In this document: positions 37,251 to 59,122 of the stretch, in pieces | How the letters are laid out: each line of letters begins with the position of its first letter | Position numbering within the stretch: the first letter of the stretch is position 1 | NCBI GenBank assembly: GCA_024279135.1 | Contig: JAJRRU010000014.1 | Location: 23,351 to 87,350 of the forward strand | Length of the DNA stretch: 64,000 nucleotides | Source of the DNA: Alphaproteobacteria bacterium | Lineage (GTDB): Bacteria > Pseudomonadota > Alphaproteobacteria > Rhodospirillales > Casp-alpha2 | Direction: 5' to 3' | The notes under the pieces: model-generated | What the model was told of the DNA's origin: nothing | The model's database searches: none | Seen by the model: the letters and a program-made list of their open reading frames with translations, nothing else | Position numbers and translations under genes: made by a program

Positions 37251-40200
37251 ATGCGGGTAATTGGCCTTGATGTGGGGATTAATTCTGTTGGCTTTTCTTT
37301 CATCAACATGGATAAAAGTGAAATTCTGGAAATGGGCAGCCGCTTGTTTGAGGCTGCGGAGCACCCAAAATCTGGCGCTTCCCTCGCCTTGCCACGAAGA
37401 GAGGCACGGGGGACTCGACGCAGGCTGGCCCGCAAAGCGCGAAAGGTTTCCCGGCTTCGTACCCTATTGAAAGAACACGGCCTGCCTGCGCAAAAAATTG
37501 TTCAATTAAAAAAGGGAGACAAGTCACCCTGGCAATTGCGCAAGGAGGGCCTGGAGCGTGTACTAAGCGATGAAGAATTTGCCCGCGCCCTGATCCACTT
37601 TGCCAAACGCCCCGGATTTCAAACAAACCGTAAATCGGCCCCGCCAAATGAAGAAACAACTTTCACGAAAGCCGGGAATGACCTTTACGAGGCCATGAGC
37701 GCAGGGGGAGCAAAAACAATTGGCGCCTGGTTAGCCGATCAGCCAAAACAACGTAATGATCCAGACAGTTATGGGCGCACTGTTATCCGCGACCACTTGA
37801 GGGCAGAAATCAAAACCCTGTTCACAACCCAACGCAGCTTCGGTAATCAAAAGGCAACAGAGCGGCTGTGTGATGATGTCATCAAATTTGCCTTTTATCG
37901 CAGAGACCTGCAATCCAGTCTGAAGCTGGTGGGCAAGTGTGCCGTGTATGGGGGCGAAGGGGAAAAACGCGCACCAAAAAGAGCCTTTCACGCGGAGCTG
38001 TTTGTTGCGCTTTCACGGTTAACCAACTTGAACATAATTTCGTATAACGGCGACAAGCGCCCCCTGGGTATTGAGGAAATTGCCTTGCTTGAGCAAAAGG
38101 CGCTCACAACAAGCAAGGTAACCTTTGCCCAGGCGCGAAAAACTCTCAACCTGCACGAAGATGAAACTTTCAACCTAGCCTCCTATACTTTCAAGCCGGG
38201 TGAGGCGTTGACGAAAGAGCAAGTCAGGGAACGGGCAGAGAAACTCTGCCTTGTGGAAATGAAAGGTTTCCACACATTGCGTGTTGCGCTTGAAAGAATA
38301 TCCAAAATGGATTGGGCGGCACTTGCATCAAGGCATGATGATCTTGACCAGATCGCCTTTGCCCTGTCGTTCTATGAATCTGAAGATGACATCAGGAGCC
38401 AACTGGAACCTTTAAACCTGTCTGAAAATAAAATCATTGCCCTGCTGGGAGCAACTGGCTTTTCCCAGACCATCAACATTTCCTTAAAAGCCGCAAAAGA
38501 AATAATTCCATACCTGCGGCAGGGTGAAACCTATATGGATGCGGTATTGAAAATACGCCCGAACCACCAGGTACGCGCAGGAGAGCAAACGCTTCTGCCT
38601 CCCTTGGCAGAAAGCACGAGAAACCCGATTGTTGATCGCTCACTGTCACAAATCCGCAAGGTCGTCAACGCTCTGATCCGCAAACACGGAATGCCGGATT
38701 ATTTCCATGTGGAAACAGCACGGGACCTGGGGCGAAATTTCAAGGATCGCAAATCAATAGAATCCGACAACAAAAAGCGCCAAGCATACAAGGAGGCAAC
38801 CAGGAAACATGCCGCAGAGATTTACGGGTTCGAGCCCAACGGAGATCAACTGGCCCGGTTTCGCCTGTGGAAAGAGCAAAACATGTGCTGCCCGTATTCT
38901 GGCGAAGAAATCAAGCCCCACCATCTCCAGAATGGCACGGATACACAGATAGACCATATCCTGCCTTATAGTCGTTCATACGACGATTCATGGTCAAACA
39001 AGGTGCTGTGTTTTTCCCGTGAAAATCAGGCCAAGGGAAATCTGACCGCGTGGGAATACATGGAGCGCAACAACATGACGCGGGAACTTGAGGCTTTTGC
39101 CAGGGGACTGGATTATCATCGAAGGAAAAAGCTGTTAACGCAGAACTTTGATGAAGAAAAGGAAAAGGACTGGAAGTCCCGCCATCTGAATGACACCCGT
39201 TACGTTGCGCGCGCGCTGAGCGCGTACCTGGAAGAAAACCTGAAACCAAACCCCAATATTAAAAAGCTGGTTCGCACCCGCAAGGGTGGGCTGACCAGCA
39301 AGCTGCGCCACTTGTGGGGCTTGCCGGAGAAAGACCGTGAAAACGATCACCGACACCACGGTGTAGATGCCTTGGTAATTGCCTGTGCGACAGACGGCAT
39401 GGTGCAAAAAGTGGCACGGTGGAGTCGATACCAACGCGGCAAAAGGGACGATCCGGGCTTTTATGCCGATACCCCGTGGGAAAATTTCCGCAAGGATGCG
39501 CTGGCGAAACTGGATGAAATGTTCGTAACTCGCCAGCCATCGCGTAAAACCGGCGGAAGGCTGCACAAGGACACGATCATGAGCCTGCGCTTTGATGATG
39601 AGGGAGCGTGGCAGGCCATCAAACGGGTTAAGGTAAAGGACTTGAAAAAGTCGGATCTTGAAAACTTGGTTGATGTGGAGATTATAGACGGTCAACCCCG
39701 TGGTCGAAACGCCACTTTGTACAAAGTGCTGAATGACCGTCTGACGGCGTTCGACAACAAACCGGACAAGGCTTTTGCCGAACCTGTGTTCATGCCGCTA
39801 AAACCCGAAAAAACCGGACCGAACGGAGAGCCTCACGGCCCAGAAATTCGCCGGGTGCGGGTTTACGATAACACCAAAGCTGGTTTTCGCCTCAAAAACA
39901 ATGGTTTTGCAGACAATGCAGAAATGGCCTGGACGGAAGTTTACGAAAAAGACGGAAAGTTCTACCTGCTACCGGTTTATACATGGCAGGTAAAGACAAA
40001 GAAATGGCCCCGAGGACTGATATATCAAGGGCGTACAGAGGAAAGCTGGCCAAATGTTGATGATGGTTACGCCTTCCTGTTTTCCCTGTTCAAGAACGAT
40101 TTCGTGGTACTCAAAAATAGTAAAAGCGTAATTACAGAGGGATATTTTAAAGGTACACACCGCGCATTGGGGCAAATAAACATTGAACAGCATAAAGGAG

Positions 40201-40322
40201 ATAATGCCGCAAATTACGGTGTTAAAACCCTGAATTCATTCCGCAAATACCACATCGACCTGTTTGGCGGACGTTCCGAAATAAAGGAGAGTACGCCGTG
40301 GCGTGGCGAACCGTCATCATAA
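37251..40322 (+). CDS. cas9: type II-C CRISPR-associated endonuclease Cas9 (1023 aa)
   Basis: RuvC-I is MRVIGLDVGINSVGFS. The Arg-rich bridge helix is LPRREARGTRRRLARKARK. The HNH motif is DTQIDHILPYSRSYDDSWSNKVLCFSRENQAKGN. RuvC-III is HHGVDALVIA. cas1 and cas2 follow with no csn2 or cas4. Confidence 0.97.
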   Translation: MRVIGLDVGINSVGFSFINMDKSEILEMGSRLFEAAEHPKSGASLALPRREARGTRRRLARKARKVSRLRTLLKEHGLPAQKIVQLKKGDKSPWQLRKEGLERVLSDEEFARALIHFAKRPGFQTNRKSAPPNEETTFTKAGNDLYEAMSAGGAKTIGAWLADQPKQRNDPDSYGRTVIRDHLRAEIKTLFTTQRSFGNQKATERLCDDVIKFAFYRRDLQSSLKLVGKCAVYGGEGEKRAPKRAFHAELFVALSRLTNLNIISYNGDKRPLGIEEIALLEQKALTTSKVTFAQARKTLNLHEDETFNLASYTFKPGEALTKEQVRERAEKLCLVEMKGFHTLRVALERISKMDWAALASRHDDLDQIAFALSFYESEDDIRSQLEPLNLSENKIIALLGATGFSQTINISLKAAKEIIPYLRQGETYMDAVLKIRPNHQVRAGEQTLLPPLAESTRNPIVDRSLSQIRKVVNALIRKHGMPDYFHVETARDLGRNFKDRKSIESDNKKRQAYKEATRKHAAEIYGFEPNGDQLARFRLWKEQNMCCPYSGEEIKPHHLQNGTDTQIDHILPYSRSYDDSWSNKVLCFSRENQAKGNLTAWEYMERNNMTRELEAFARGLDYHRRKKLLTQNFDEEKEKDWKSRHLNDTRYVARALSAYLEENLKPNPNIKKLVRTRKGGLTSKLRHLWGLPEKDRENDHRHHGVDALVIACATDGMVQKVARWSRYQRGKRDDPGFYADTPWENFRKDALAKLDEMFVTRQPSRKTGGRLHKDTIMSLRFDDEGAWQAIKRVKVKDLKKSDLENLVDVEIIDGQPRGRNATLYKVLNDRLTAFDNKPDKAFAEPVFMPLKPEKTGPNGEPHGPEIRRVRVYDNTKAGFRLKNNGFADNAEMAWTEVYEKDGKFYLLPVYTWQVKTKKWPRGLIYQGRTEESWPNVDDGYAFLFSLFKNDFVVLKNSKSVITEGYFKGTHRALGQINIEQHKGDNAANYGVKTLNSFRKYHIDLFGGRSEIKESTPWRGEPSS

Positions 40323-41188
40323 GCTCGGAATGCCGGGTTTCGTTAAAGCGCAGCCAGTTAGTGGTTGAGCGGGAAGACGACACACTGAGTGTTCCGGTCG
40401 AGGATATTGCTGTTTGCGTACTCGAACACAGGGGCATTACCGTTTCAACGGCCCTGCTTTCATCCCTGTGCGAGGCAGGAGCCGCCATTGCCGTTTGTAA
40501 CAACCGCCACTTGCCCAACGGCTTGATGCTGCCGCTCCTCACCCATTCGCGGCAAAGTCAGATTGCGGCGTTACAGGCTGGATGGTCTACTCCATTCAAA
40601 AAAAGGGCATGGCAAAACATCGTTCGTGCAAAAATAATCAACCAGGCCCACTGCTTGGCCCGCCGCGATCCGGAAAAAGGCAAGACCATACGCGAAATGG
40701 CAAAACGGGTTGATTCCGGGGATTTAAAAAACCGGGAAGCCCACGCCGCCCGAACCTACTGGCCCGCCCTGATGGGCAAGGGCTTCATTCGCGGGGCCGG
40801 AGACCTGCCCAACAGTTTTTTAAATTACGGATACACGGTTGTGCGCGCCTGTGTCGCCCGCTCGCTAGTCGGGGCCGGATTGCTGCCCTGCTTTGGGCTT
40901 CATCACGATAACAACCTGAACGGATTTAACCTTGCCGATGATTTAATCGAACCGTTTCGCCCCTTTGTTGATGACGCCATCATTGGCTTGGCCGCTCACC
41001 GCGACAAGAAAGACGACCTTAACAAGGAGGATCGCGCCGCCCTCGCCCAGCTCCCGGCCACTCAGGTTCTGATTGAGGGCGAACTGCAAACCATACTGAA
41101 TGCCACGCAAATTTCGGCTGAAAGCCTGGTACGTGCCATACGGAACAAAGACGCTTCGGCCTTGTGCCTACCGGAATTTTCCATGTAA
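40298..41188 (+). CDS. cas1: CRISPR-associated endonuclease Cas1 (type II)
   Basis: GTG 40298 follows AAGGAGA. 296 aa with the NYGYTVVRA and GLHH motifs. It overlaps the cas9 end. Confidence 0.95.
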   Translation: MAWRTVIISSECRVSLKRSQLVVEREDDTLSVPVEDIAVCVLEHRGITVSTALLSSLCEAGAAIAVCNNRHLPNGLMLPLLTHSRQSQIAALQAGWSTPFKKRAWQNIVRAKIINQAHCLARRDPEKGKTIREMAKRVDSGDLKNREAHAARTYWPALMGKGFIRGAGDLPNSFLNYGYTVVRACVARSLVGAGLLPCFGLHHDNNLNGFNLADDLIEPFRPFVDDAIIGLAAHRDKKDDLNKEDRAALAQLPATQVLIEGELQTILNATQISAESLVRAIRNKDASALCLPEFSM

Positions 41189-41208
41189 GCCATGAGGGAT
41201 GACTGAAA

Positions 41209-41550
41209 ATGAGCGTAAACGGAGATCGCTTCATGTGGATAATGGTATTTTTTGACCTGCCAGTTGGCACAAAGCCACAACGACGCGCTGCCACTCGTTT
41301 TCGCAATTATTTGCTCAAGGATGGTTATATTATGCTACAATTCTCCGTCTATGGGCGAATCTGTAACGGCCAGGAACGGGTTGATAAACATCTAAAGCGC
41401 CTACAGACTGTTTTGCCGTCAAATGGCAACATTCGCGCCCTGCAAGTCACCGATCAGCAATACGGACGTATGAAGATTCTTCTAGGAGAACGAGATGAAA
41501 ACGAAGAAAAAGATACAAAAAACAATGGCGGACAGCTCCTTTTACTCTGA
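41209..41550 (+). CDS. cas2: CRISPR-associated endoribonuclease Cas2
   Basis: 113 aa. MWIMVFFDLPVGTKPQRRAATRFRNYLLKDGYIMLQFSVYGR is Cas2-like. Confidence 0.9.
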   Translation: MSVNGDRFMWIMVFFDLPVGTKPQRRAATRFRNYLLKDGYIMLQFSVYGRICNGQERVDKHLKRLQTVLPSNGNIRALQVTDQQYGRMKILLGERDENEEKDTKNNGGQLLLL

Positions 41551-41596
41551 ACAATCCGCCATTTATTCTTTGTTTTCAACCGGCTAACAGGAGCGT

Positions 41597-43216
41597 ACCA
41601 TAACATAACGATGCAAAAAGGGAAGCTATGGCACCCACGATTTTATGAAACGGGTAATTTTTACCATAACATAACGATGCAAAAAGGGAAGCTATGGCGG
41701 CTAGTAGGGTTTCGCGCCTGTTCAAGCCACCATAACATAACGATGCAAAAAGGGAAGCTATGGCTGGCTTGCAATAACAGGACCAGGGCGATCCACCATA
41801 ACATAACGATGCAAAAAGGGAAGCTATGGCAGCTTTTGTACTCTTACGAGCCATAGTATTACCATAACATAACGATGCAAAAAGGGAAGCTATGGCGGCT
41901 GATTTGGTGTTCAATGCAGCAAACTAACCATAACATAACGATGCAAAAAGGGAAGCTATGGCCGTACTAATGGTGGTGAGAAGTTCCTAGGTACCATAAC
42001 ATAACGATGCAAAAAGGGAAGCTATGGCCTAATGTTCCATATCAAGTCTAATGCTAAGACCATAACATAACGATGCAAAAAGGGAAGCTATGGCTAAGTC
42101 TCTAAGAACTGATTTGATTAATCAACCATAACATAACGATGCAAAAAGGGAAGCTATGGCTATCATTAGACTGCCTAAATTTTAATAGAGACCATAACAT
42201 AACGATGCAAAAAGGGAAGCTATGGCTACCTTTTCATGTTTAGCATTGACCATCTGACCATAACATAACGATGCAAAAAGGGAAGCTATGGCTCCTACAG
42301 GAGAGCATGACTGGTCTGAAAAACCATAACATAACGATGCAAAAAGGGAAGCTATGGCTATTCCTCTCTTGGCCCCCCCCAAGAAGAGACCATAACATAA
42401 CGATGCAAAAAGGGAAGCTATGGCTCCATTGCGGCATGCCATTCACGGCTCAATACCATAACATAACGATGCAAAAAGGGAAGCTATGGCCGGTCTTACG
42501 TAATACCAGCGCCGCAATCAACCATAACATAACGATGCAAAAAGGGAAGCTATGGCTCTTCACATGATGCAGTCGCTCATAATTGGACCATAACATAACG
42601 ATGCAAAAAGGGAAGCTATGGCCGATGGTAAAACGTATGCCCAGATTACCGAACCATAACATAACGATGCAAAAAGGGAAGCTATGGCGGTTGGCACTCA
42701 GCTGGCCTTGAGCGAAGAACCATAACATAACGATGCAAAAAGGGAAGCTATGGCCTGCGCAAAGCGTTTACGGTAGTTATTAAAACCATAACATAACGAT
42801 GCAAAAAGGGAAGCTATGGCTTATAAGCCAGAATATGCAATACAGGATTTACCATAACATAACGATGCAAAAAGGGAAGCTATGGCCATTGATTGTTGAT
42901 TTCAATGAAGTTGGCGACCATAACATAACGATGCAAAAAGGGAAGCTATGGCTCCAAAGCTATAATGGATTAAAGGCTGTTAACCATAACATAACGATGC
43001 AAAAAGGGAAGCTATGGCTTCAGAAACATAAGACGGTTTGCCAAAGCGACCATAACATAACGATGCAAAAAGGGAAGCTATGGCCAACGCCCTTGCTGGC
43101 ATTATTGGCAGCATACCATAACATAACGATGCAAAAAGGGAAGCTATGGCTGCCTGCTAGATGTTCAAAAATGTTTCGTTACCATAACATAACGATGCAA
43201 AAAGGGAAGCTATGGC
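41597..43216 (-). CRISPR. CRISPR array: 25 identical 36-bp repeats, 24 spacers of exactly 30 bp
   Basis: The plus-strand repeat is ACCATAACATAACGATGCAAAAAGGGAAGCTATGGC, at 41597+66k for k=0..24; all were checked by eye. The minus-sense form is GCCATAGCTTCCCTTTTTGCATCGTTATGTTATGGT. It resembles type II-C (Neisseria-like) repeats and is complementary to the predicted tracrRNA, so the crRNA is read from the minus strand. Confidence 0.97.
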
Positions 43217-43259
43217 TAATTCTTTGATTGCTAACTTTCGTTAGCAATCAAAGAATTAG
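43217..43259. terminator. perfect 19-bp-stem hairpin abutting the last CRISPR repeat
   Basis: taattctttgattgctaac-tttc-gttagcaatcaaagaatta starts at the first base after repeat 25. Confidence 0.5.
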
Positions 43260-43630
43260 CCAGCTTGACCGGCAAGCCGCTCCCTGCAAATAACCTCAAC
43301 CAAATCCTATAACTTGCGAATACGGGCTTACAGCCCTTCGAGTTCTTCGGCTGTGATTTCGTAGTGTTTGGAATATCGGGCCTCGACGTAGGCGCGGCGT
43401 AGTAACTCAAATTTCCACTTAACGGAGCGTTGCTAGTGGCAAATGTTCCAGTGAAGTTTTCATATGTCCTGTTTATCAAAAATCAAACAGGACAAAAGAA
43501 GAATGAACACTCATACCCTTAATTTTGAATCTGGCATAATAATTAGAAAATATCCATATTTGGTAGTCGATTTTAATTATATGCCAGCTTATGATGTTGC
43601 ATTCATTTATACATGGTGAAATTTTAGCAT

Positions 43631-45112
43631 ATGATTAAAGCAGCCGCACTAGCCCAAGCCGATTATCTGACAGCCAAGCCCGAAGTGGTACGTAAAGAGC
43701 TTGGGCAATATTTCACTGGTAGCTCTATAGCCGACTATATGGCTTCAATGCTGGAACCAGTAAGCGCACCTACGGTGCGTATTCTTGATGCTGGTGCAGG
43801 GGCTGGTATCCTGACCATTGCAGCCGCAATGCGATATTTGGCCTTAGGCAATAACTGCGTTCACGCTGTGTTGTATGAAATCGATCAGGACACCCTATCG
43901 CATTTAGAACTCAATATGCGTCGTGTAGCCAAAGCGTTCAAGGAACAAGGTGGATCATTTACCTTTGAAATTCGCCACGAAGATTTCGTATTGGCAAGGC
44001 CGGATCGTAAAGAAGAACGCTTCCATGCGTCTTCGATAAATCCGCCATACTTCAAATATAGTTCCAAAACGTCACCTTATGCCAGTGCAACGCCAGACCT
44101 CTACAAGGGAAACCCGAATATTTACGCATCTTTCATGGCTGTCGTAGCAGCCTGCATGACTGATGATGGGCAAATGATTGTCATTGTTCCCCGAAGTTTC
44201 ACCAATGGCCTATATTTCAAAGGATTTAGAAGATACCTTAATCGCGCTATGAGCCTTGAAAAAATCCATATTTTCAGAGCACGCAACCAAGTGTTCCGGG
44301 AATCAGCCGTGTTGCAAGAAAATATCATTTGCAGCTATCGTAAGGCGCAACAGGGAACTTCTATTAGTATTTCCACCTCAACAGGGCACCATGACCTAAG
44401 CCAAACTGAAACCAATCACTACCCCGCTAGGCAACTGATAGACACAACAAACGCCCATGAAATAATTCGTATTCCGGAAACAGTTGAAGATGCCAAGATA
44501 TTAGCAGGTGTCGAGCATTGGCCTTCAAGTTTTCAAGACAACGGTTACTTCATCTCAACTGGCCCGGTGGTGGAACATCGCACACGGGAATTTATCACTG
44601 CCCCTGACAACATAAAAAACAGCATTCCATTGCTAAGAATGCACAATATCAAAACACTTAAAACAGAGTGGACTGGAACCAACAAAAAGGATGCCCGCTT
44701 CCTTTTGCTCAATTGCCATGAGAAGCACACATCAAACAATTTACCCTATGTCATCTTGAAACGTTTCAGCTCAAAAGATGAGAAGCGCCGTTTAGTCGCT
44801 GGAGTGCATAACCCTGAGGTAATTAAAGGCGAAATCATCGCCTTGGAGAATCATTTAAATTACATTGGGCACAATGATGGCCCTCTTAAGCAAGATGAAA
44901 TTTACGGATTGGCATTATTATTCAACTCAACACTGATAGATAAATATTTCCGATGTATATCAGGGAACACCCAGGTAAATGCAACTGAAATACGGCTCCT
45001 GAAGTTACCTGCCCGTGACACAATCAGGAAAATAGGTAAAACCTACAAATCAAATAGCTCTTTTCCACAAGAGCAAATAGATATGATTATTGAACGATTT
45101 TTAGAAATTTAA
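43631..45112 (+). CDS. N6-adenine DNA methyltransferase (gamma-class, PstI/BsuBI-system type)
   Basis: 493 aa with SAM motif [13 protein letters not shown] and catalytic motif [12 protein letters not shown]. The cognate endonuclease gene lies directly upstream of its partner position, immediately after this gene. Confidence 0.85.
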
Positions 45113-45126
45113 AGGCCCCACAAATA

Positions 45127-46098
45127 ATGAGTCAAAGAGAAGAAAAACTGCTGCAGGCACAAGAATTATTAAAAGCACTTGGCTTGCCAAAATCGCAATA
45201 TAACAACCGCTCGGCGTGGGTATTTCTCGCCTTATCGAATATTAAACCGGATGATAGTTGGAACAACGCACAAGCTCCATTACTTCCAACTGTAGAAATA
45301 ATGCAGTTCATACGCGAACACTACGGACAGGATTACAAACCAAATTCCAGAGAGACAATTCGCCGTCAAACACTTCATCAATTTGAGCAGGCCCGCATTG
45401 TTGACCGCAACCGGGACGACCCTTCGAGGGCCACCAACAGCAAGGATAATAATTACTCGCTGAACTCACCTATCATTGAAGTGCTAAAGACTTTCCCTGG
45501 CGGCAACTGGAAACAAAGAATTGAACGGTACAAAGCCGATCTGCAAAGCCTTCAAGAGCTTTACCAGCGCAGTTTAGAAATGCATAAAATCCCCGTAAAA
45601 TTACCCAGTGGGCAAGAAGTTAAACTATCGCCCGGTAAACATAATCAGCTACATGCTGATATTATTCATGAGTTTTGCCCTCGCTTTATTGGTGAAGGTG
45701 GAATCGTGCTTTACATCGGTGATACCGCAAGTAGCCGCAAAGAGGGCGGCAAACTAATGGTGCTGGAAACGGAAGTTCTGGAAGAACTGGGCGTTCCTCC
45801 GATGTCACATGATAAATTACCTGACGTAGTCGTTTATGATAAAAAGCGGGAATGGTTATTTCTTATCGAGGCTGTGACCAGTCACGGCCCGGTATCACCC
45901 AAACGTTGGATTGAACTGGAAGATGCACTAAAAACATGCAAAGTAGGCAGAGTCTATGTTACCGCCTTTCCTGACAGAGCAGAATTTCGTAGAAACGCTG
46001 CTGATATTGCTTGGGAAACGGAGGTCTGGATTGCTGACAATCCAGACCATATGATCCATTTCAATGGTGATCGCTTCTTAGGGCCACACAAAAGATAA
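45127..46098 (+). CDS. BsuBI/PstI-family type II restriction endonuclease
   Basis: 323 aa. The N-terminus (..[60 protein letters not shown]) and C-terminal catalytic part (..[26 protein letters not shown]..) match my memory of this family. Confidence 0.8.
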
Positions 46099-46119
46099 CC
46101 CCAGAAATATTCTGGCCCT

Positions 46120-47592
46120 TCACCCCTCCAACGCCACCGTTCGCGCCCAACAGGCCATAGACAGCCCGGCGGCTTCGGCTGACTCTACGTATTGCTGATG
46201 TTGCTCGCTGGGTATGGACAAATTCACCTTTACGGCTCTCAATCCCCATTTTGACGGGGTTGGCAATATGGGCGGCGGGGTTTCCAGCCTTTTTGCCAGC
46301 CACATGGGAATGCTCAAGCCTTCGGCATCGGCTTTGCTCTTGGCGATGGCTTCCTCGTCTTCGTTAAGCCGGAAGGAAAACACCGCCTTTTTGACTGTCG
46401 GTGGCCCTGGCTTCCTCACCCTTTCCAGCATCACCCCAATTTCCGGCGATAAACCGCCAAGCAAGCCTTGCAGAGTTTGCCCGATCCGCTCGGCGGCTTC
46501 TTCTGTCTGTTTATCGGTCACATGGGTATAGCGCAGGGTCATGGAGGTTTTCTTGTGGCCTAACAATTTGGAAACCATCGGCAACGGTACACCGCGCAAC
46601 ACTGCATGGCTGGCGAAGGTGTGGCGCAGGTCGTGGACTCGCACGTCTGGCACTCCGGCCCTTTGGCGAACGAGCACCCAGAACAGCCCCACTTCCGGGC
46701 GTGCCCTTTTGGTATCGCGGTAGAATGGGAACACAAAGGGGCTTTTGCCTCTTGGTTGCTTGCTCAACAGCTTCACCGCTTCCTTGCACAGGTAAACGTC
46801 ACGAGGCCCGGTTTTGGTGTCTGCCAACTTGATAACATCGCCTTTGACCGTTGACCATTTGAGACTGCAAATCTCCTGATGGCGGCACCCGGTAAGCAGT
46901 AGCATTCGTATAATATCGGCACCCTGTTTGTCTTCCGGCCTTTCGAGTTCAATCTGGCCCAATATCCGCGATACCGTGTTGATTTCCTCGGATGACAGAA
47001 ACCGGTTAAGCGTTTTCTTCGGGTTCTTCTTGATGCCCTGCACCGGGTTCTCGATCAGGTGTCCGCACACAATGGCGAACTCCATCATGGAATAGAGCAT
47101 TTCCAGAACACGGTTGGCCCCGCCGGGGAACTCATTGCTGTATTCTTCGAACCATCGGGCCACCAGCGCCCGGTCAATCTCGTCCAGATACAGCTTGCCG
47201 AAGTTTGGCATTAACCGCGCATTGATATAGCAGCGGGTCGATCTTTGCCCCGATGGTTTGAACTGGCTGAACTTCTGCTCCCACCAGATACCGTTGATAA
47301 AATCGGCAAACAGCGGTGTTGCTGAATTGCTGACTCCTGAACCCTCCGGCGTGTCGCCCTGTGCGATTTTCTCAAGGCATAGTTTCCGGGCTTGCACTTC
47401 ATCAATCACCGGAAACTTACCAAGGGTAATCCTGCGCGATTGCTTTTCCACCTGCTTATGCAGAACAAAGGATTTATAGCCGGACGGTTTGACGCGAAGC
47501 CCAAAGCCGGAAAGCTGGCTATCCCAAACGGTGTATTCTTTATCGGTTGGGGCAAGGCGTTTAATGCGCTGGCTTGAAAGTTTGGTTTTCAT
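46120..47592 (-). CDS. P4-type tyrosine integrase with a ~112-aa C-terminal extension containing two RHH-like modules
   Basis: The DUF4102-like arm domain is TVWDSQLSGFGLRVKPSGYKSFV. The catalytic motifs are HDLRHTFAS and LLGHKKTSMTLRYTH. The extra tail contains AVFSFRLNEDEEAIAKSKADAEGLSIPMWLAKRL and AVKVNLSIPSEQHQQYVESAEAAGLSMACWARTVAL. Confidence 0.9.
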   Translation of the reverse strand: MKTKLSSQRIKRLAPTDKEYTVWDSQLSGFGLRVKPSGYKSFVLHKQVEKQSRRITLGKFPVIDEVQARKLCLEKIAQGDTPEGSGVSNSATPLFADFINGIWWEQKFSQFKPSGQRSTRCYINARLMPNFGKLYLDEIDRALVARWFEEYSNEFPGGANRVLEMLYSMMEFAIVCGHLIENPVQGIKKNPKKTLNRFLSSEEINTVSRILGQIELERPEDKQGADIIRMLLLTGCRHQEICSLKWSTVKGDVIKLADTKTGPRDVYLCKEAVKLLSKQPRGKSPFVFPFYRDTKRARPEVGLFWVLVRQRAGVPDVRVHDLRHTFASHAVLRGVPLPMVSKLLGHKKTSMTLRYTHVTDKQTEEAAERIGQTLQGLLGGLSPEIGVMLERVRKPGPPTVKKAVFSFRLNEDEEAIAKSKADAEGLSIPMWLAKRLETPPPILPTPSKWGLRAVKVNLSIPSEQHQQYVESAEAAGLSMACWARTVALEG

Positions 47593-48734
47593 TATTTCAA
47601 CTCCCCGGCAATAGCGGAGGCCACGTCTCGGGCTGTCTCGCGAACATGCCCGTTAGCAAGGTGCGCGTATTTAAGAGTGGTTTCCGGGTCAACATGTCCC
47701 AGCAACCGCCCGATGGTCAGAATATGCTCACCATGTTCAAGGGCAATGCTGGCATAAGTATGGCGAAGGTCATGCATCCGCACCCCTTCCAGCCCTGCCC
47801 GTTTGCGGATCGCGCTCCAATGAACGATATGGTTACAAGCACCGCGACAGTTGTTCACGGTGCTGGCTGTCGATCTGGCGGGAAGCACATACGGGGATGA
47901 CGTGCGCGGGATGGCATCGAGCACGGCACAGGCTGCGGTGGACAGGTAGACCGTTTTTGCCCCGGTCTTGCTATCGGGCAGATACAACTTGCCGTGCTTG
48001 TAGTCCGTCCATTTCAGATTAATGATTTCACTTTTCCGGCATCCCGTTAAAATCAGCAGGTGGAAGAAAGCAACGCACACCGGAGAAATTGTTTTGTACT
48101 CCTGCAAAACCTGCCCAAGCCTTGCCAGTTCGACGGCTGACAGGAAACGCTCCGAGGGTGCCATTTTATAACGGGGAATGCCCTTGCATGGGTTGGTGTT
48201 GTCCGGGCGGTATCCGTATAGCTCGGCCTGTTGCATCATCACCGACAAAACAGGCAAGGCCCGGTTGGCTGGCCCCGCCCTGTTGCCCAAGGACGCGAAC
48301 CAGCGTTTAATCAGGTTCTTGTCGATTATGGCAATCTGCATTCCTTTGAAAAAAGGCAAAATATCACGCTCATAAGCGTTGCGACTGGCGAGAATAGTTG
48401 ACGATTTCCAGTTGCGTTTATAGCGCTCAAAAAACATCGCGCCCACGTCTTCAAACAAGGCAATTTCAAGTTGCTTTTTTCCCGCTACGGCCTTGCCTTC
48501 GGCGGTACAGGCCAAAGCCAGTTCGCGGGCTTTGGCTTCGCCCAACTCGGCGGTGGTGCCAAGACTTTCTTGCTTGCGCCTTCCCCTGTTCTGGGTCTGG
48601 ACAAAAAACAATTTACGCCCAGTCGGATAAACTCGCACCCCGTAACCGGGTATGATAGTATCGCGGATAACGTAATCTTTTTGGCGCAATTTGAGAGATT
48701 CAACGAATTTCTGTGTCAGCTTTTTCTTTTCCAT
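47592..48734 (-). CDS. P4-type tyrosine integrase
   Basis: The ORF is open to 48812 and I prefer ATG 48734 after GGAG. The arm domain is VIRDTIIPGYGVRVYPTGRKLFF. The catalytic motifs are HDLRHTYAS and LLGHVDPETTLKYAH. Its stop shares one base with the downstream integrase start. Confidence 0.9.
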   Translation of the reverse strand: MEKKKLTQKFVESLKLRQKDYVIRDTIIPGYGVRVYPTGRKLFFVQTQNRGRRKQESLGTTAELGEAKARELALACTAEGKAVAGKKQLEIALFEDVGAMFFERYKRNWKSSTILASRNAYERDILPFFKGMQIAIIDKNLIKRWFASLGNRAGPANRALPVLSVMMQQAELYGYRPDNTNPCKGIPRYKMAPSERFLSAVELARLGQVLQEYKTISPVCVAFFHLLILTGCRKSEIINLKWTDYKHGKLYLPDSKTGAKTVYLSTAACAVLDAIPRTSSPYVLPARSTASTVNNCRGACNHIVHWSAIRKRAGLEGVRMHDLRHTYASIALEHGEHILTIGRLLGHVDPETTLKYAHLANGHVRETARDVASAIAGELK

Positions 48735-48865
48735 GATTTCAGTATCTCCATGAAACGGGTTCAAAAAACCGCTGCACTGGAGGAAAGGAAAAACCAAAGC
48801 CACCCGCTGCAACGGGCAACCCGAATAAAAAAACTGAATATTTTGAGCTACTTAGCTTCTCCCAC

Positions 48866-48891
48866 TACCTGTAAGACAGAGATAGGTGTGG
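48866..48891. repeat. right copy of the imperfect direct repeat bracketing the defence island (candidate att site)
   Basis: TACCTGTAAGACAGAGATAGGTGTGG lies 54 bp beyond the open end (48812) of the outer integrase ORF. Confidence 0.35.
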
Positions 48892-49432
48892 TCACTTAAC
48901 GTCCGAGGACGTCCCGTAATCAGCGAGGGGCAAAGCCCTTTTTTGCTGTTCGGGTTCACAAGATGACATAGAGAACGGAGTAGTCCCTCTTGGGGGACAG
49001 ATAGGGGGTGCAGGTGTTGATCGTATCTCCCGCGCAAGGGGCAGTCACCCGAAGGGATAAGACGCGCCTTCGCGGCTTAGTGACGAGCTTCTTGGCGAGG
49101 AATATGACCCGGTCCGACGAAGGAGGATGCGCCCAGACCTTACGGCATAACAAACAGCCTGACAGGCAAAAATGATCTCCCCAAATCAGCCAAAACAAGC
49201 TCCCAAACCTGATTAAATATCACCCTCGACAGGCACTCAAAAAAATCTCGCCATTACAAAAACCGTTCCCGCAAAAACTCCACTCGCAACCGTCCAGGGG
49301 TGCCGGGGACTTGTCCCCGGCTGGGTCAAGGGCAAAGCCCTTGGTTGGCGCAAGCCAATGCGGATCGTCACCCACAAAAAAGTCAAAAGCCGATCAGGCT
49401 TTTGTCCGCAATAAACTCAGCAGGCGGGCATA

Positions 49433-49465
49433 AAAATAACCCTGCCGGTGATTACCGACAGGGCT
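49433..49465 (-). terminator. rho-independent terminator of the DUF2493 gene
   Basis: On the minus strand, CCCTGTCGG-taatca-CCGGCAGGG is followed by TTATTTTT, 8 nt after the stop codon. Confidence 0.6.
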
Positions 49466-49472
49466 TGTGTGC

Positions 49473-50399
49473 TTATGCGTATTTCTTTGTTGGGATGCCC
49501 ATGCCTCGGGCTTTGTCTACCAAATTCTCGGTGATGCCGGTTCCGGGGAATGCCAGCACACCGATGGGCAAAATCTCCAGCATTGAGTCGTTACGTTTGA
49601 ACCCGGCGCGGGATTTTCCGTATTTGTTCCAGTCCGGCTTGAACACCACTTGCGCGACCTTTCTGGCGGCGGCCCATTTGGCGGCAATCAGATCTGTGCC
49701 TTTCGGTGCACCTCCATGAACCAACGTCATGTCCGGGTGTTTCTTGTGAGCCTTGTCGAGGGCAGCGAATATCAGCTCGTACTCGTTGAAGTCCATGCCT
49801 CCGGCGACGACCACCGTGGGGCCTTCGGGTGCCATTGAGAGTGTCTTTTTGCGCTCGGTGGCGGCGAGGAAGTCTCGGCTGTCAACCACGGCGGCGGTCA
49901 TGTGTGATGTGCTGATGCGGGAGCCTCGGCTTGGCATCCACGGTTGTCCGGTCTGGGCCGAAAAAAGCTCGGCTGCGTGGTCGCGCATGGTTTCAAAATA
50001 TTCGCGGGCGTATGATGTGGCTTTGGCCCGGATTTCAAGTTTCTCCAGTTCCACCGATTTCACCTCGGTTCCGTCCTGTTCACGGATGGCGCGGCGGATA
50101 TCGAAGCTCAGTTGGTCGAAACCTTTGTCGAGGCGGTCGAGCTTGCGCTGGAAGACGTTGACTGTGTTCCACAGCACGTCGGTGGCCTCGCTCTCCAAGC
50201 ATGTATCTGTGAAGAGATGGGCCAGACTGTCAAACACGTTGTCGAGGGTTGCAAAGCTGTGATCTTGCTCGGGCAGGGGCCGGGGATCGACTTCATCTGC
50301 TGGGGGCATGGCACCGAAGAGCTGCATGCGGTTCATAATCTCGTGGGTGGCGCTCTGGCCTGTCAGGCTGTCGGTGATGTCGGGTGTTTCTGAATACAT
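49473..50399 (-). CDS. DUF2493 (SLOG-like) domain protein with a ~190-aa N-terminal extension
   Basis: 308 aa. The C-terminus TVVVAGGMDFNEYELIFAALDKAHKKHPDMTLVHGGAPKGTDLIAAKWAAARKVAQVVFKPDWNKYGKSRAGFKRND is DUF2493-like. Confidence 0.75.
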   Translation of the reverse strand: MYSETPDITDSLTGQSATHEIMNRMQLFGAMPPADEVDPRPLPEQDHSFATLDNVFDSLAHLFTDTCLESEATDVLWNTVNVFQRKLDRLDKGFDQLSFDIRRAIREQDGTEVKSVELEKLEIRAKATSYAREYFETMRDHAAELFSAQTGQPWMPSRGSRISTSHMTAAVVDSRDFLAATERKKTLSMAPEGPTVVVAGGMDFNEYELIFAALDKAHKKHPDMTLVHGGAPKGTDLIAAKWAAARKVAQVVFKPDWNKYGKSRAGFKRNDSMLEILPIGVLAFPGTGITENLVDKARGMGIPTKKYA

Positions 50400-50681
50400 T
50401 TGTTTAGCTCCTTCGTTGCGGCGAACGGTTGATCCCGCTCATGGGGCTACTTTGCGGATCGGATAGGGGCATTCATCACCCCACCCCCGCAGGGGGCTTG
50501 AGTGGGGCCGCAACGAAGTGGAGGACTGTCTGGGACAGCTTTTTTGCCTCGCGAGGAATGGGCGCTTGCGCCCAGGGGAAAAAAGGTGGTTCAGCCAGTT
50601 GATCTATGCCCCCCGATCCGCGATGCCCCACTCATGAGCGGAATCAAACGGTCGGTGCAACGAAGGAGCGGACGTGTTCAG

Positions 50682-51490
50682 ATGCCTGTCATTACCGATA
50701 GCCTGACCGGACTCGATGCCCATGAGGTTATGAACTGTTTGTAACTCGCCTTGCCCCTGTTGAAGTTGATCCCCGGCCCCTGCCCGAACCCACAGCCCTC
50801 AACCCGAACGTGCTTGGTGGTCTGGCCCGGCTCTTCACTGCTTGCTGGCGGGGCTGCTGGCTTGCTGTGGAACACGGTCAATGTCTTCCAGCCCACCGCC
50901 TGATAAGGGTTACGAGCATCTGAGCAATCCGCCGTGCCATCCGCGAACAGGACGGAATATGCAAAGATGGAACTGGAGAAACTGGAAATTCGGGCAACTC
51001 CACCAGCCTGCGGCTGTTTTGGAACCATGCGCGACCATGTAGCTTTCTGCCAAGGCCAGATCGGGCAACCGTGGATGCCGGGGCGGGGTTCCCCACATGC
51101 CACCATGATCGTTGCCTTGGTTGACAGCCGGGACTTAATCGCCGCCATGCAACCAGCCTCTGGCCACCCGAAGGTTTTACGGTGGTCGTCGCCGGGGGCA
51201 TTCTCAGTTCAACACCTGATATTCGCAGCCCTCGACTAGGCTCACCCTATACCCGGCCTATTGGCTTCATAGGCAACAACTAGGCACTGGCTATTGCCGC
51301 CATAGCCGCAGCCCGGTCGCGCAAGTGGTGCTCAAGCCGGAACGGTGTTCGATAAATCCAGTGCCGGGTTCAAACGTAACGACACGATGCAGATTACAAT
51401 GCCATCGGTGTGCTGGCATTCCCCGGAACCTGCACCACAATTTAAAAGGCAAAGCACGAGGCTTGGGCATCCCTGCAAAAAATTCACCCG
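50682..51490 (+). pseudogene. decayed inverted copy of the DUF2493 gene
   Basis: Frame-hopping matches to the intact copy include MPVITDSLTGLDAHEVMN (vs TPDITDSLTGQSATHEIMN), MELEKLEIRA..FGTMRDH..GQIGQPWMPGRGS (vs VELEKLEIRAKA..FETMRDH..AQTGQPWMPSRGS) and KARGLGIPAKN (vs KARGMGIPTKK). A matching terminator hairpin lies at about 51497-51530. Confidence 0.7.
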
Positions 51491-51731
51491 CAACAAGCCC
51501 TGTCGGTAATCTCCGGCAGGGATGTTTTTCGGCCCGGTCGCGTATCTGTCAATCCGCACTTGCCCGAGTTGAAAATCTATCACGATTTTATTGCACAACC
51601 CGCTTTACCTTCATCAAAGGACATTCATACAATCTGTATGCAGGAGGCTCTTATCTTTGCCTATAGCCGTAGGCGGACGAAGATACTCTTTCGGATGAGG
51701 TTTGTAGTGGCTTGAAGTTACAATAAATGCA

Positions 51732-52979
51732 TCAATCTGACACCTCAACCCATTTGCCATTCGGCACAATCTTCAACTGCGCACCGAATTCGGTGAATTG
51801 TTTGGGCTCTAACGTATGTATGGGAATTAGTGCCTTAGGCTTAATCGCTGAAACCAATCGCTTGAGGTCTACCGCAGAGGCATGTCCTGACGTATGGACT
51901 ATATCGAAAGCAACTTCGTTCTCACTACACCAATTGCGAAGGTCAACTTTTCCTCTCTCCAGATAACCTGGCCACATAGAGTAGATAACCTTGGCACCAA
52001 TAAGGCAGTTGGCCCTGCATAAATCCTCGGCCATTGATTGCCTGAATGACATTACTAGATTACCTGACCTTCGTTTAAGTTCGCTCGGATAAATTCGGCG
52101 ATTTTTGAATGGCTCGACAAGATCGAACGTACCATCCCTAACGATTTTCAACTTTGCTCGATGAGGAAGGTAAACCCTGAGTGCGCTAGTTGTCGGGTCG
52201 GGAAGTGTTTTCCTGCCGATAGCGCAAAGCATATGCGCAACATAGAGATCAACGACGAACGTTCGCCCGCTTTTTAATGTGGCTTTGTAAAAACTGATAA
52301 ACCGATCTATGTTTTGACCTGAAAACGCAGCAAGTACGATTCCTTGTGTTTTTTGCATCTGCTCAGACAAAACTTCCACAAGGTCCGCCTCGCGGAGCTC
52401 CGGTTCACTGATATTTCGCCCAAGTGTCGTGCCTTCTAACAGCATGGCATCGACCGAGACGGGTGGATCGTTCAACAAAGCCTCAAAGGCCCATTTCTTC
52501 CATCCATGCCCCCGGATATCGCCAGAATAAAACAACCGCTCGCCATTCGCCTCAATCAAAAATGAGTAAGCATCAAAAGCGGAATGATCTGCCAAATAAG
52601 GTGTTATGGAAAACGGGCCAATGCGAAACACTTTTCGTGCATGGTAGAAACAGACATTTGGAAACGCAGCACCAAATGGTCCAAAGGCCATTGCCGCTCG
52701 AAGGAGCTTGTCTGCTCCACGTCCGATATATATTGGTATTGCAGGGTGCGCGTACTCCGCAAGTCCGTAATGATCGGCATGAGGGTGGGAAATGATAATC
52801 CCCAACAGGTCTACGTTGCTCCCGTCTGTAAGGCCCGGAATTGAAGGTAAGGCTTTTTCGCCATGAAGATCACCCATAAGAGGGGCACCCAGATCAAGGA
52901 GAATAGATTTACCATCCGCCTGAAGCTCGATGCAGTTTCCGCCAATTTCCTCGGCTCCTCTATGAATTTTTACCCTCAT
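51732..52979 (-). CDS. beta-CASP-type metallo-beta-lactamase-fold nuclease
   Basis: 415 aa. The MBL motifs are LLDLG, SHPHADHYG, LADHS and YSGD. The beta-CASP-like motifs are LLEGTTLG (A), HTSGHA (B) and IPIHT (C). Confidence 0.75.
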   Translation of the reverse strand: MRVKIHRGAEEIGGNCIELQADGKSILLDLGAPLMGDLHGEKALPSIPGLTDGSNVDLLGIIISHPHADHYGLAEYAHPAIPIYIGRGADKLLRAAMAFGPFGAAFPNVCFYHARKVFRIGPFSITPYLADHSAFDAYSFLIEANGERLFYSGDIRGHGWKKWAFEALLNDPPVSVDAMLLEGTTLGRNISEPELREADLVEVLSEQMQKTQGIVLAAFSGQNIDRFISFYKATLKSGRTFVVDLYVAHMLCAIGRKTLPDPTTSALRVYLPHRAKLKIVRDGTFDLVEPFKNRRIYPSELKRRSGNLVMSFRQSMAEDLCRANCLIGAKVIYSMWPGYLERGKVDLRNWCSENEVAFDIVHTSGHASAVDLKRLVSAIKPKALIPIHTLEPKQFTEFGAQLKIVPNGKWVEVSD

Positions 52980-52986
52980 CGGTGCC

Positions 52987-53907
52987 TCAAATCCAAACTG
53001 GATGAAGATTGTTCATCGCTTCAATAAGCAATCGATTTGGACCGAATGCAACTTCTTTACCCTGCTGTTGCAAAACATCCTCACCACTTGAAAACGGCAA
53101 CTGAAAATCATCTGGGAACGAGAGAAATTCGAAATTCATCTTAAGACCGTCATCTCGATCAACGCAAAGTCGTTCCAGCCCGTCCCGAATACCAACGGCG
53201 AGGAAGCCCAAATCATAGGATGCATAAAACTTTATTGGGGCCAAGACTTGAAGGGTGACGCATTCTACCTGCAAAAGTTTTTTATCTTCGTATCCAAAGA
53301 TGCTCTTTTTGTCTCGACATAGGAGATAAGCAAGACCGTATTGAAGAATTTCAAATGCTGCGAATGCCGGTGTATCGCTTCCCCATTTCAATTCAACGAG
53401 ATCAACGTTCCGATCTTGGATACAAATCAAGTCAATAGCAGCCCGCTTGTCGGCTTTATCATCAACCATGCCAGAGGCAACCGGTATTTGGTTGTACCAA
53501 TTCCCAAGCTCCCCACTTTCACCTAGGATGGCAATGGCACGTTCGAGCACAACTTCGGGACTCTTGTTTTTTGAAGCAAGTGTTATTTGTCGTTTAATGC
53601 GCCAATTTTCTTGCGATGGAATTCGCCCTGACCAATTCAAAAACACTTGATTTAGTAGCCTTCCCACCAACCTTGGAACAACATCGTCGTCAATTGATTT
53701 AGGTGAAAGGTTTAAGCATGTTGATTTCTGCTTGAGGTGCTTGCCCGGCTCAAGTCCAAGGGCATTATGGATAAGATTTTCAGTGCCATTGAATATGCCT
53801 TTCGTAGTCATAACGTCTCGCTCATTTCCAAGTGTTATCGCTGTTAGGGTCAGAGATTGCAGCGTGATAAAAAATTCCCAACCAGAAGTCACATGTTGTA
53901 CTTTCAA
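52987..53907 (-). CDS. hypothetical protein with a PD-(D/E)xK-like nuclease motif
   Basis: 306-aa ORF with a TTG start and an alternative ATG at 53811. AAIDLICIQDRNVDLVELKWG fits hydrophobic-D ... ExK. It ends 7 nt upstream of the MBL gene start on the same strand. Confidence 0.5.
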   Translation of the reverse strand: MKVQHVTSGWEFFITLQSLTLTAITLGNERDVMTTKGIFNGTENLIHNALGLEPGKHLKQKSTCLNLSPKSIDDDVVPRLVGRLLNQVFLNWSGRIPSQENWRIKRQITLASKNKSPEVVLERAIAILGESGELGNWYNQIPVASGMVDDKADKRAAIDLICIQDRNVDLVELKWGSDTPAFAAFEILQYGLAYLLCRDKKSIFGYEDKKLLQVECVTLQVLAPIKFYASYDLGFLAVGIRDGLERLCVDRDDGLKMNFEFLSFPDDFQLPFSSGEDVLQQQGKEVAFGPNRLLIEAMNNLHPVWI

Positions 53908-54027
53908 CCATTACGTTAACGTAGATGACGGGCCAGATAAAGAACGGGTTATTATCAATGAATCTAGCGGATCAACTTTGCCCAATTAGTATGGGAATAT
54001 GCGAAAACTCCGCCAGTTTAAACGCCC

Positions 54028-54291
54028 CTATCCATTTGCCACTCGATGTAAAACATCGCCATGACAGGCCGCAGGAGCGCACCAGCATACCAAATCCTTA
54101 CCACGCAGTTCGCGCTTGATTACTGCCTGTAGTTCCGGGCGGCATCCGATGTATGCACTGAATTTCTCAACCACTTCTGCCCGTGATCCATCCCTGCCCA
54201 TTTGAAACGGATTACCCCATTTACCGGGCCGTCCGATATAAACCGCGTTTGCCGGGGCTGTGCCTGATCGTTTGTTATGTACGCATGTCAT
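54028..54291 (-). CDS. DUF4326 domain protein
   Basis: 87 aa. VYIGRPGKWGNPF..KDLVCWCAPAACHGDVL is the DUF4326 signature. Confidence 0.8.
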   Translation of the reverse strand: MTCVHNKRSGTAPANAVYIGRPGKWGNPFQMGRDGSRAEVVEKFSAYIGCRPELQAVIKRELRGKDLVCWCAPAACHGDVLHRVANG

Positions 54292-54311
54292 GTTTCTTCT
54301 CCTGCTATGTG

Positions 54312-54464
54312 TTCAATTACACCCAACATTTTTTCGCCTTTACCTCTGGGCGTTACGAAGCACCGCCTTGGCGTTTAGCCATAGGCGGTGGGAGAACTCC
54401 GGCATTGACGGGATGATGTGAATTGCCCTGCGCGGGGATGGGAGCGAAGCGATACCATCCAGCC
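54312..54464. repeat. conserved non-coding leader, copy A (upstream of the DUF4326 gene)
   Basis: Block 1 at 54312-54347 matches 55873-55908 at 28/36 positions. Block 2 at 54430-54464 matches 56034-56068 at 32/35. GTGAATTG is also shared (54418 and 56002). Confidence 0.7.
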
Positions 54465-54613
54465 CGTGCAAGGGCAGGGCAACGGACAGCCAGCGGCGTT
54501 TAGCCGTCTGACCTTGTCCAGAATGCCCGTGAGTGTTGGCACAGCCATAGACCGGGCCGGAGGTTCTGGCGTTCAGCCATGAACCAATCGGCCTAGGTCA
54601 TGGCGTGATGGGT

Positions 54614-55336: not shown

Positions 55337-55415
55337 GATGTGTCCCTCCAGAATGAGAAACGGCGGAAGCCCGTAAGCCCCCGCCGTGTGATTATGTTTA
55401 TTCTCAAGAGGCCAC

Positions 55416-55850
55416 TTAGAACGGGATATCATCATCCAGATCGGACGGAGGGTTGTTGTAGCCAGCGTCGTCCTGGGGTGGCATATCGTCTTCGGGACGG
55501 TCGTTGAGTTTCTCCAGGAACTGGATTTGGCAACCGGGTGTAACCGCGATTTCGGTGGTGTAACGCTCGATGTTATTGTTGTCCGTCCACTTACGGGTGC
55601 GAAGCATACCCTGCACGGCGGTCAGGCGGCCCTTGCGAGCGTGCTTTTCCAGAACCGAAACCAGCCCCTTCTGGAACGTCACCACCCGGTGCCATTCCGT
55701 GCGCTTAACCCATTCTCCAGATTGTTTGTCTTTGTAGCTGTGGTCGGTCGCGATGGACATGGTTGCCACCTTGTCACCGTTCTGCATTGTCCGAATGTCG
55801 GCGTCCGCGCCAAGATGCCCTACGATTGTTACGCTGTTGATACTGTACAT
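55416..55850 (-). CDS. ssb: single-stranded DNA-binding protein
   Basis: The OB-fold reads MYSINSVTIVGHLGADADIRTMQNGDKVATMSIATD..WHRVVTF. The acidic tail is DLDDDIPF. Confidence 0.95.
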   Translation of the reverse strand: MYSINSVTIVGHLGADADIRTMQNGDKVATMSIATDHSYKDKQSGEWVKRTEWHRVVTFQKGLVSVLEKHARKGRLTAVQGMLRTRKWTDNNNIERYTTEIAVTPGCQIQFLEKLNDRPEDDMPPQDDAGYNNPPSDLDDDIPF

Positions 55851-59114: not shown

Positions 59115-59122
59115 CAGTTTGC

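Follow-up and report, generated by a model that had tools for sequence, protein, structure and literature searches.

A 64,000-nucleotide stretch of contig JAJRRU010000014.1 from an alphaproteobacterium of the Rhodospirillales (called the window here, meaning the whole stretch analysed) contains a gene, intB, encoding a 490-aa P4-type tyrosine integrase to whose C-terminus a pair of diverged ribbon-helix-helix (RHH) modules is fused. The fusion is real and is under purifying selection, and the tail is predicted to be a single-chain RHH pseudo-dimer of the type found in the F-plasmid protein TraY. Together with a second integrase gene, intA, intB belongs to a 12.2-kb integrative island that is inserted into a conjugative element. 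The interpretation that we favour, with a probability of about one half, is that the tail is a tethered, cis-acting accessory or architectural binder in the att arms of the recombination complex. Related proteins and loci are designated by P and L numbers, respectively. The gene and the parts of its product are as follows.

46120-47592, minus strand: intB (stop codon 46120-46122), 490-aa P4-type tyrosine integrase with a fused tandem-RHH tail
47368-47580, minus strand: N-terminal arm-type DNA-binding domain of IntB, residues 5-75
46510-46974, minus strand: catalytic domain of IntB, residues 207-361
46390-46458, minus strand: flexible tether between the last integrase helix and RHH module 1, residues 379-401
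46282-46389, minus strand: RHH module 1, residues 402-437 (strand 402-410, helix 411-423, G-L-S turn, helix 428-437)
46237-46281, minus strand: Pro-rich linker between the modules, residues 438-452 (15 residues, motif PSKWGLR)
46123-46236, minus strand: RHH module 2, residues 453-490 (strand 453-461, helix 462-474, G-L-S turn, helix 479-489)

Residues 1-378 of IntB have the full P4-type architecture of arm-binding, SAM-like and catalytic domains, with matches in Pfam to Arm-DNA-bind_3 (PF13356, 32.3 bits, cut-off 27), the SAM-like core-binding domain (PF14659, 23.6 bits, cut-off 22.6) and Phage_integrase (PF00589, 75 bits), followed by a match to NikA-like (PF21983). In an alignment of 34 homologues there is no variation at R237, K260, H320, R323, H346 or Y355, and the enzyme part therefore looks active; the catalytic tyrosine, Tyr355, lies within the sequence LRYTH and is encoded by the codon at 46528-46530. 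About 118 of the 120 best homologues stop 2-50 residues beyond the last common helix, near IntB residue 378, and IntB continues for 112 residues beyond this point. PF21983 was found in two of these 120 homologues, namely the window's own protein (P0001) and P0002.

The tail matches the Pfam family NikA-like in two stretches with 37.2 bits (curated cut-off 27); both modules add to this score, and no other sequence family exceeds its threshold for the tail. Taken singly against the RHH part of the NikA-like model, module 1 scores 23.1 bits (E 8e-5) and module 2 scores 19.5 bits (E 1e-3); the model positions matched by the tail are only 3-40 of 72, the generic RHH part. Matches below threshold were to the antitoxin RHH families DUF6290, HicB and RelB, and there were weak NCBIfam matches to MobA, MbpA and TraJ. 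The two modules also resemble each other, with a Smith-Waterman z score of 4.4 (a score reached by 0.4% of shuffles), and profiles of module 1 and module 2 built from 10 orthologues are aligned colinearly by hhalign (probability 96.3%, E 1.7e-9). Plain BLASTP found no match between module 1 and module 2; their likeness is at the level of a family and does not reflect recent duplication. The G-L-S turns are conserved in both modules among orthologues, and the tether varies in length and sequence. The linker, PP..LP.PSKWGLR, is invariant in two three-sequence alignments, A1 and A2 (the window, P0002, and either P0121 or the translation of L001), has the variant PSKRGLR in L008 once more orthologues are aligned, and in the lineage of P0123 and P0146 takes the form NPPExLPP followed by unlike sequence.

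AlphaFold2 models were obtained for full-length IntB (34 sequences, mean predicted local distance difference test score, or pLDDT, of 81) and for the tail only (three-sequence alignment, mean pLDDT 72, predicted template modelling score, or pTM, of 0.55). In both models a strand-helix-helix succession occurs twice in the tail, with pLDDT of 78-90 in module 1 and 68-84 in module 2 and, in the tail-only model, of about 80-87 across the modules, and the tether is disordered (pLDDT <50 at residues 382-398 of the full-length model and at residues 1-18 of the tail-only model). The tail model contains two strands in all, both of which are marked as paired by DSSP, and so they pair with each other, as in the ribbon of an RHH dimer. 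Polar and basic residues alternate on these strands (S406/R408/N410 and K455/N457/S459), and by analogy with Arc, S406, R408 and N410 would face the DNA. When the model was compared with the PDB by Foldseek, the top ten matches were all chains of F-plasmid TraY (template modelling score 0.54-0.65, root-mean-square deviation 2.2-3.7 Å, about 90 columns), and AvtR (4hv0) and single-chain Arc (1u9p) appeared lower in the list. F TraY is a monomer with an entire RHH dimer in one polypeptide (PMC12117103). The tail has no similarity to F TraY by sequence (hhalign probability 0.3%), and a sequence search of the PDB with the tail profile gave chance matches only, so that the likeness to TraY is structural and not one of sequence kinship.

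Much of this had been proposed in an earlier note made from the sequence of the window. The extension of about 112 aa that it described after the catalytic tyrosine box is borne out by the point at which most homologues end, and the peptides that it gave for 46285-46386 and 46129-46236 are exact translations. Its assignment of both modules to the RHH fold agrees with the NikA-like matches, the match between the module profiles, the AlphaFold2 models and the Foldseek results, and its suggestion of an intramolecular RHH unit is supported by the paired strands and by the match to TraY over both halves, all of these being predictions. A disordered or non-RHH tail, either of which the note had named as fatal to its claim, was not what AlphaFold2 predicted. 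The resemblance that it saw between both modules and a small stand-alone protein encoded at 34143-34454 held for module 1 (z = 6.5) and was weak for module 2 (z = 2.7), with no match by BLASTP; in Pfam, that protein itself matches RHH families only below threshold.

RHH domains are obligate dimers, and it is possible in principle that the modules pair between IntB protomers instead, by a domain swap, and act as an oligomerisation clamp for the synaptic tetramer; the AlphaFold2 models cover the monomer only. However, the 15-residue linker is long enough for intramolecular pairing (that of engineered single-chain Arc is comparably long), module 1 and module 2 have diverged into two separate types, each of them conserved as such, the monomer model fits TraY across both halves, and the unit of duplication in the orthologue P0146 (below) is the pair. 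Pairing between chains is therefore very improbable.

At least five independent sequences have one reading frame that passes without a break from the catalytic domain to the tail. They comprise the window, P0002 (489 aa, 59% identity to IntB, tail kept), L006, L010 (whose orthologue is cut short behind module 1), P0123 and P0144, which are fragments, and P0146; the reading frames of L004 and L005 are open up to the contig edge. The earlier note's proviso that the tail might be a separate gene joined to intB by a sequencing frameshift is thus answered by the uninterrupted open reading frame (ORF) in the window and in several orthologues. The ratio of nonsynonymous to synonymous substitution rates (dN/dS) in the tail is 0.12-0.38 in all 21 of 21 pairs (Nei-Gojobori method, 89 codons, seven sequences), and the tail is thus translated and constrained. 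P0146 (L016, 10001-11902) is a 633-aa orthologue on a 2.0-Mb contig of 87x coverage, with a NikA-like score of 60.9 bits and four RHH modules arranged as two tandem pairs. A 375-nt DNA repeat within the gene indicates that the pair was duplicated as a unit, with odd modules resembling odd and even resembling even, and to judge from this duplication the functional unit appears to be the module pair.

Two candidates for a stand-alone version of the tail were rejected. Homology to the linker extends upstream of the GTG start of P0121 to an inserted element, presumably an insertion sequence (IS) in view of the C-terminus of an IS5-type transposase, and P0121 is the 3' remnant of a fused gene interrupted by this IS. 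P0122, called as a separate gene after the integrase P0003 in L011, is probably due to a frameshift on a contig of 3x coverage; once the frame is corrected by one base, P0003/P0122 is colinear with the fused P0123 over the linker as well (47% identity, E 9e-44). That the tail could be a fortuitous or decaying fusion without function, whether a captured antitoxin or accessory gene or an artefact of assembly or frameshift, might be argued from the weak matches to DUF6290, HicB and RelB, from the frequency of toxin-antitoxin cargo beside these integrases, and from the calling of the L011 tail as a separate overlapping gene. Such an explanation is largely refuted by the dN/dS values, by the retention of the tail across lineages in which tails are only 33-60% identical, by the frame-corrected L011 translation, and by the gene context, in which the neighbour of the tail in the window is not a toxin gene but a convergent BsuBI/PstI-type restriction enzyme gene; with the antitoxin-family matches lying below threshold, it is hardly credible.

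Upstream of intB lies a second integrase gene, and the pair is accompanied by att sites and by a motif in the att arms.

47592-48734, minus strand: intA, second P4-type integrase, 380 aa from the ATG at 48734
36724-36734, plus strand: attL core, left copy of the 11-bp direct repeat GATAGGTGTGG
48881-48891, plus strand: attR core, right copy of GATAGGTGTGG, about 147 bp upstream of intA
48764-48778, plus strand: motif AAAAWCCGCTGCACT in the P arm, candidate arm-type or promoter element
36894-36908, plus strand, and 36974-36988, minus strand: the same motif in the P' arm

The stop codon of intA overlaps the start codon of intB by one base (TAATG), and the IntA-IntB pair is kept in every related locus of which the upstream side is visible (L002, L008, L011, L013 and L016). 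The sequence GATAGGTGTGG occurs exactly twice in the window, both times on the plus strand, and once in L017, a related conjugative element that was reached through cluster members of the proteins flanking the island. Colinearity between L017 and the window extends over 27410-35589 (80% identity) and 48878-51563 (85%), and everything from cas9 to intA is missing from L017; that is, L017 presents the empty site. In a three-way alignment of attL, attB and attR, the sequence to the left of attL matches the left side of the L017 site, and the sequence to the right of attR matches the right side. The repeats and the empty site together thus delimit the island as 36724-48891. Both cores lie within the regions (36.6-36.8 kb and 48.8-49.0 kb) that the earlier note had singled out. 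The att assignment is supported by the joined ends of the island, which recreate an inverted repeat, TTCTCCCAC/GTGGGAGAA, around the core, and the circular junction of the excised island is predicted to read ...CTTCTCCCACTACCTGTAAGACAGAGATAGGTGTGGGAGAATTTTTCGC... It is supported also by L013, a 5.2-kb island whose IntB has no tail and which has the same CCACACC core at 309 and 5514, adjoining a tRNA-Arg gene; the target of the window island is not a tRNA gene.

The motif AAAAWCCGCTGCACT is conserved upstream of intA in L008 and also in the tail-less L013, and so is not specific to the tail; it is more likely to be an arm-type or promoter element than the target of the tail. The motif TGCAGCGGWTTTT was rejected as a tail-specific binding site because it occurs in L013. 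A 29-nt repeat at 36891 and 48761 had been taken for att and was superseded by the GATAGGTGTGG core after the empty site was found. The elements upstream of intA bear on the idea that the tail is an autorepressor, binding an operator at the intA-intB promoter so that the integrase would restrain its own production. Repression is the typical function of RHH proteins, Arc, Mnt and CopG being free examples; the P arm, in the stretch from the attR core to the ATG, contains the intA promoter and conserved elements, and the tail has weak RHH matches to the regulators RelB and TraJ. However, the conserved elements are found in L013 as well, and no operator-like repeat unique to tail-bearing loci was seen, which makes autorepression a rather unlikely function. 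It would be compatible with an architectural role, because the promoter and the arm overlap.

In the architectural role that we favour, IntB and the translationally coupled IntA would constitute the recombination module of the island. The two diverged RHH modules, with the Pro-rich linker between them, would form one unit, held to the C-terminus of the integrase by the flexible tether of about 20 residues, and this unit would bind an asymmetric DNA site in or near the att arms. From what is known of RHH biology, S406/R408/N410 and K455/N457/S459 may read an asymmetric site in the major groove, and the conserved G-L-S turns may contact the phosphate backbone. The tail would thereby do the job that is done elsewhere by separate small proteins such as the Xis-type factors and TnpC/GinD, and tethering would raise the local concentration of the factor and tie its dose to that of the integrase. 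The tail is always last in the IntA-IntB operon, and the genes downstream differ from locus to locus, which ties it to recombination rather than to cargo. An accessory role is favoured also because the duplicated pair of P0146 recalls the trains that TraY forms on the origin of transfer (oriT), and because a distant stand-alone tandem-RHH protein of 98 aa (P0127, in L012 8001-9301; NikA-like score 69.8 bits) is encoded by a gene that overlaps the start of a 335-aa tyrosine recombinase gene by 4 nt, the position of xis relative to int. There is precedent in multi-recombinase elements: GInts and elements of the Tn554 type need a small accessory protein, GinD or TnpC, encoded directly after the recombinases (PMC5385486).

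Several observations weigh against an accessory role. The confidence of the AlphaFold2 tail model is moderate and its alignment is shallow. No DNA site peculiar to tail-bearing elements was found, the sole repeated arm motif being present in L013 too, and the literature searched yielded no known recombination directionality factor of the RHH fold. The tail-less P0004 of L013 belongs to an IntA-IntB island that has the same att core and toxin-antitoxin genes as cargo, without an RHH gene in the vicinity, and the lack of a tail in P0004-P0006, which have either lost it or never possessed it, implies that the tail is not needed for the core recombination reaction. There are signs of decay in several tail-bearing loci, IntA being split in L011 and L016 and IntB being a pseudogene in L008.

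A more specific proposal, which we put forward only tentatively, is that IntB is an integrase with a built-in accessory or directionality factor, in which the TraY-like RHH unit, in one or two copies, reads and bends an asymmetric arm site and makes the reaction independent of Xis. In a more radical variant of this proposal, the tail would recruit the excised island to the transfer machinery of the host element. A related explanation places the tail among relaxosome accessories, binding an oriT on the island or on the host element and coupling excision to mobilisation, or, most radically, makes IntB itself an atypical relaxase. It derives from the NikA-like family being the sole one above threshold, from the weak NCBIfam matches to MobA, MbpA and TraJ, from the relaxosome protein TraY being the best structural match, and from the location of the window island inside a conjugative element with a MOBF relaxase. 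However, the part of the NikA-like model that is matched is generic, the tail lacks sequence similarity to TraY, and IntB retains its full integrase architecture. The tail is fused to an integrase, and in the window 12 kb separate it from the relaxase, which is part of the host element; this element has its own small RHH gene directly after the relaxase gene, conserved in the island-free L017. Other tail-bearing loci are chromosomal or lie amid defence or toxin genes, with no transfer genes in view. A function in the relaxosome is therefore improbable.

The accessory role, if true, would mean that an accessory DNA-bending factor has been fused to the enzyme and could vary in copy number, in contrast to a separately regulated small protein. 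How integration would then be kept separate from excision is a question to which the tail-less IntA may be the answer. Engineering could make use of a self-contained integrase that has an additional, modular head for reading DNA, and with its defined att sites, empty site and cargo, the island is a compact 12-kb testable system that moves a type II CRISPR-Cas9 locus together with restriction-modification genes.

The tail is scarce. When 1.84 billion cluster representatives were searched with a tail profile (HMMER), 11 proteins reached E <= 0.001, none of them a named family and some of them tandem and four-fold RHH repeat proteins. The tail was found in seven metagenome loci. Scans of GTDB species genomes, PLSDB plasmids, INPHARED phages and IMG/VR viral contigs did not find it; a 24-residue archaeal match among the GTDB genomes was spurious. 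For the integrase region, E. coli genomes gave no match. Protein searches of the word-indexed kind, made with the tail, returned short proteins only and missed P0002, and therefore cannot gauge the frequency of the fusion to integrases. The earlier note had remarked that the architecture was unfamiliar among characterised integrases, and indeed no tyrosine integrase with an RHH tail was described in the open literature searched; a tyrosine integrase with a TraY-like RHH tail is thus a rare architecture. In a neighbour-joining tree of the integrase part (without bootstrap), the window protein, P0002, P0003/P0146 and the tail-less P0004-P0006 form one clade, in which P0004-P0006 (55-58% identity) are a nested subgroup. 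On these sequences, the simplest reading is one gain of the tail followed by one loss. The note had also held that close homologues ending after the catalytic domain would undermine its claim; the nearest relatives keep the tail, in its favour, with the qualification that this sub-clade is without one.

Other features of the related loci were noted. In L008 (8860-10270), the decayed intB is frameshifted, and within its catalytic domain a short tandem repeat has expanded (translating as ...CANTCANT...), and the tail ORF is still open, in another frame; P0144 is a second, divergent integrase-tail fragment on the same 89-kb contig. P0146 adjoins a tolQ/tolR/tolA/tolB cluster, and its partner IntA is split into pieces of 88 and 265 aa. 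Direct repeats bounding the island of L016 were looked for and not found. The element of L012 that encodes P0127 also has helicase, D5-type primase and single-stranded DNA-binding protein genes.

Besides intB and intA, the island in the window contains the following.

37148-37190: tracrRNA-like anti-repeat, upstream of cas9
37251-40322: cas9, 1023 aa
40298-41188: cas1
41209-41550: cas2
41596-43216: CRISPR array of about 25 repeats at 66-nt spacing
43631-45112: Eco57I/N6-type methylase, member of a restriction-modification pair
45127-46098: BsuBI/PstI-type endonuclease, convergent with intB and adjoining the end of the tail

A complete type II CRISPR-Cas locus (37148-43216) is thus the cargo of an integrase-driven island inside a conjugative element. 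Neither csn2 nor cas4 was seen in this locus, the small ORFs of which were left unscanned; their absence, if real, would suggest type II-C. The GC content is 42-46% over 41-46 kb, compared with 52-58% in the surrounding DNA. The host replicon (1-35600 and 48900-64000) is a conjugative plasmid or an integrative and conjugative element, and its features include those below.

8597-9442: replication initiator protein A
26317-29091: F-type TraG_N protein
29444-31342: coupling protein
31342-34146: MOBF (TrwC-type) relaxase
34143-34454: RHH-like protein of 103 aa, its start overlapping the relaxase stop and a VirC1/ParA-like ATPase following
49473-50399: YspA/SLOG protein
59294-60214: Toprim protein
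60218-63985: Strawberry-notch-type helicase

The order of relaxase, RHH-like protein and VirC1/ParA-like ATPase is kept in the island-free L017, and so the RHH-like protein at 34143-34454 belongs to the host element, of which it is probably a relaxosome or partition accessory. Proteins that cluster with those of the host element at 90% identity are present in metagenome-assembled genomes labelled Arenicellales, Rhodospirillales and Sphingomonadales. The SLOG region contains a diverged, inverted partial duplicate (49425-49550 resembles 51419-51536 on the opposite strand, with 79% identity over 126 nt), and the SLOG region of L017 matches 50613-51536 in reverse (70%).

Among known systems, TraY is the closest structural counterpart of the tail. 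TraY binds DNA in trains, to which the two tandem pairs of P0146 may be likened. TraY (PDB 9f0x-9f12) and, as predicted, the IntB tail each have two RHH units per chain in a monomeric pseudo-dimer, and both would be accessory DNA binders linked to a DNA-processing enzyme; TraY differs in being a free protein of 131 aa that acts at oriT with the relaxase, whereas the unit of IntB is covalently fused to a tyrosine integrase. The RHH proteins of the NikA, MobA and MbpA type have one RHH per chain, dimerise, and are encoded beside the relaxase gene and oriT. Two RHH units per chain are found also in AvtR (4hv0), in engineered single-chain Arc (1u9p) and in VirC2 of Agrobacterium, a single-chain or tandem RHH protein, but all of these are free regulators or accessory proteins and not enzyme fusions.

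In position and presumed function, the tail may be likened to the small DNA-binding accessories of recombinases. Xis proteins have a winged-helix fold. Xis, TnpC of Tn554 and GinD of the GInts (PMC5385486) differ from the tail in being separate polypeptides, and GinD is predicted to have a helix-loop-helix structure; the GinD and TnpC genes directly follow the recombinase genes and xis overlaps them, with the cargo starting just behind. GInts have three XerC/D-like recombinases, whereas the window island has two of the P4 type, each with an arm-binding domain, and no third upstream in the window. IntB resembles the P4-type island integrases (with DUF4102 arm-binding domains) in architecture, catalytic residues and flanking direct repeats, and departs from them in its tail, since they end about 25 residues past the catalytic tyrosine, and in its coupling to IntA as a pair. 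The enzyme part of IntB is thus a P4-type integrase, and the tail is a member of the RHH superfamily that falls formally within the NikA-like family of Pfam.

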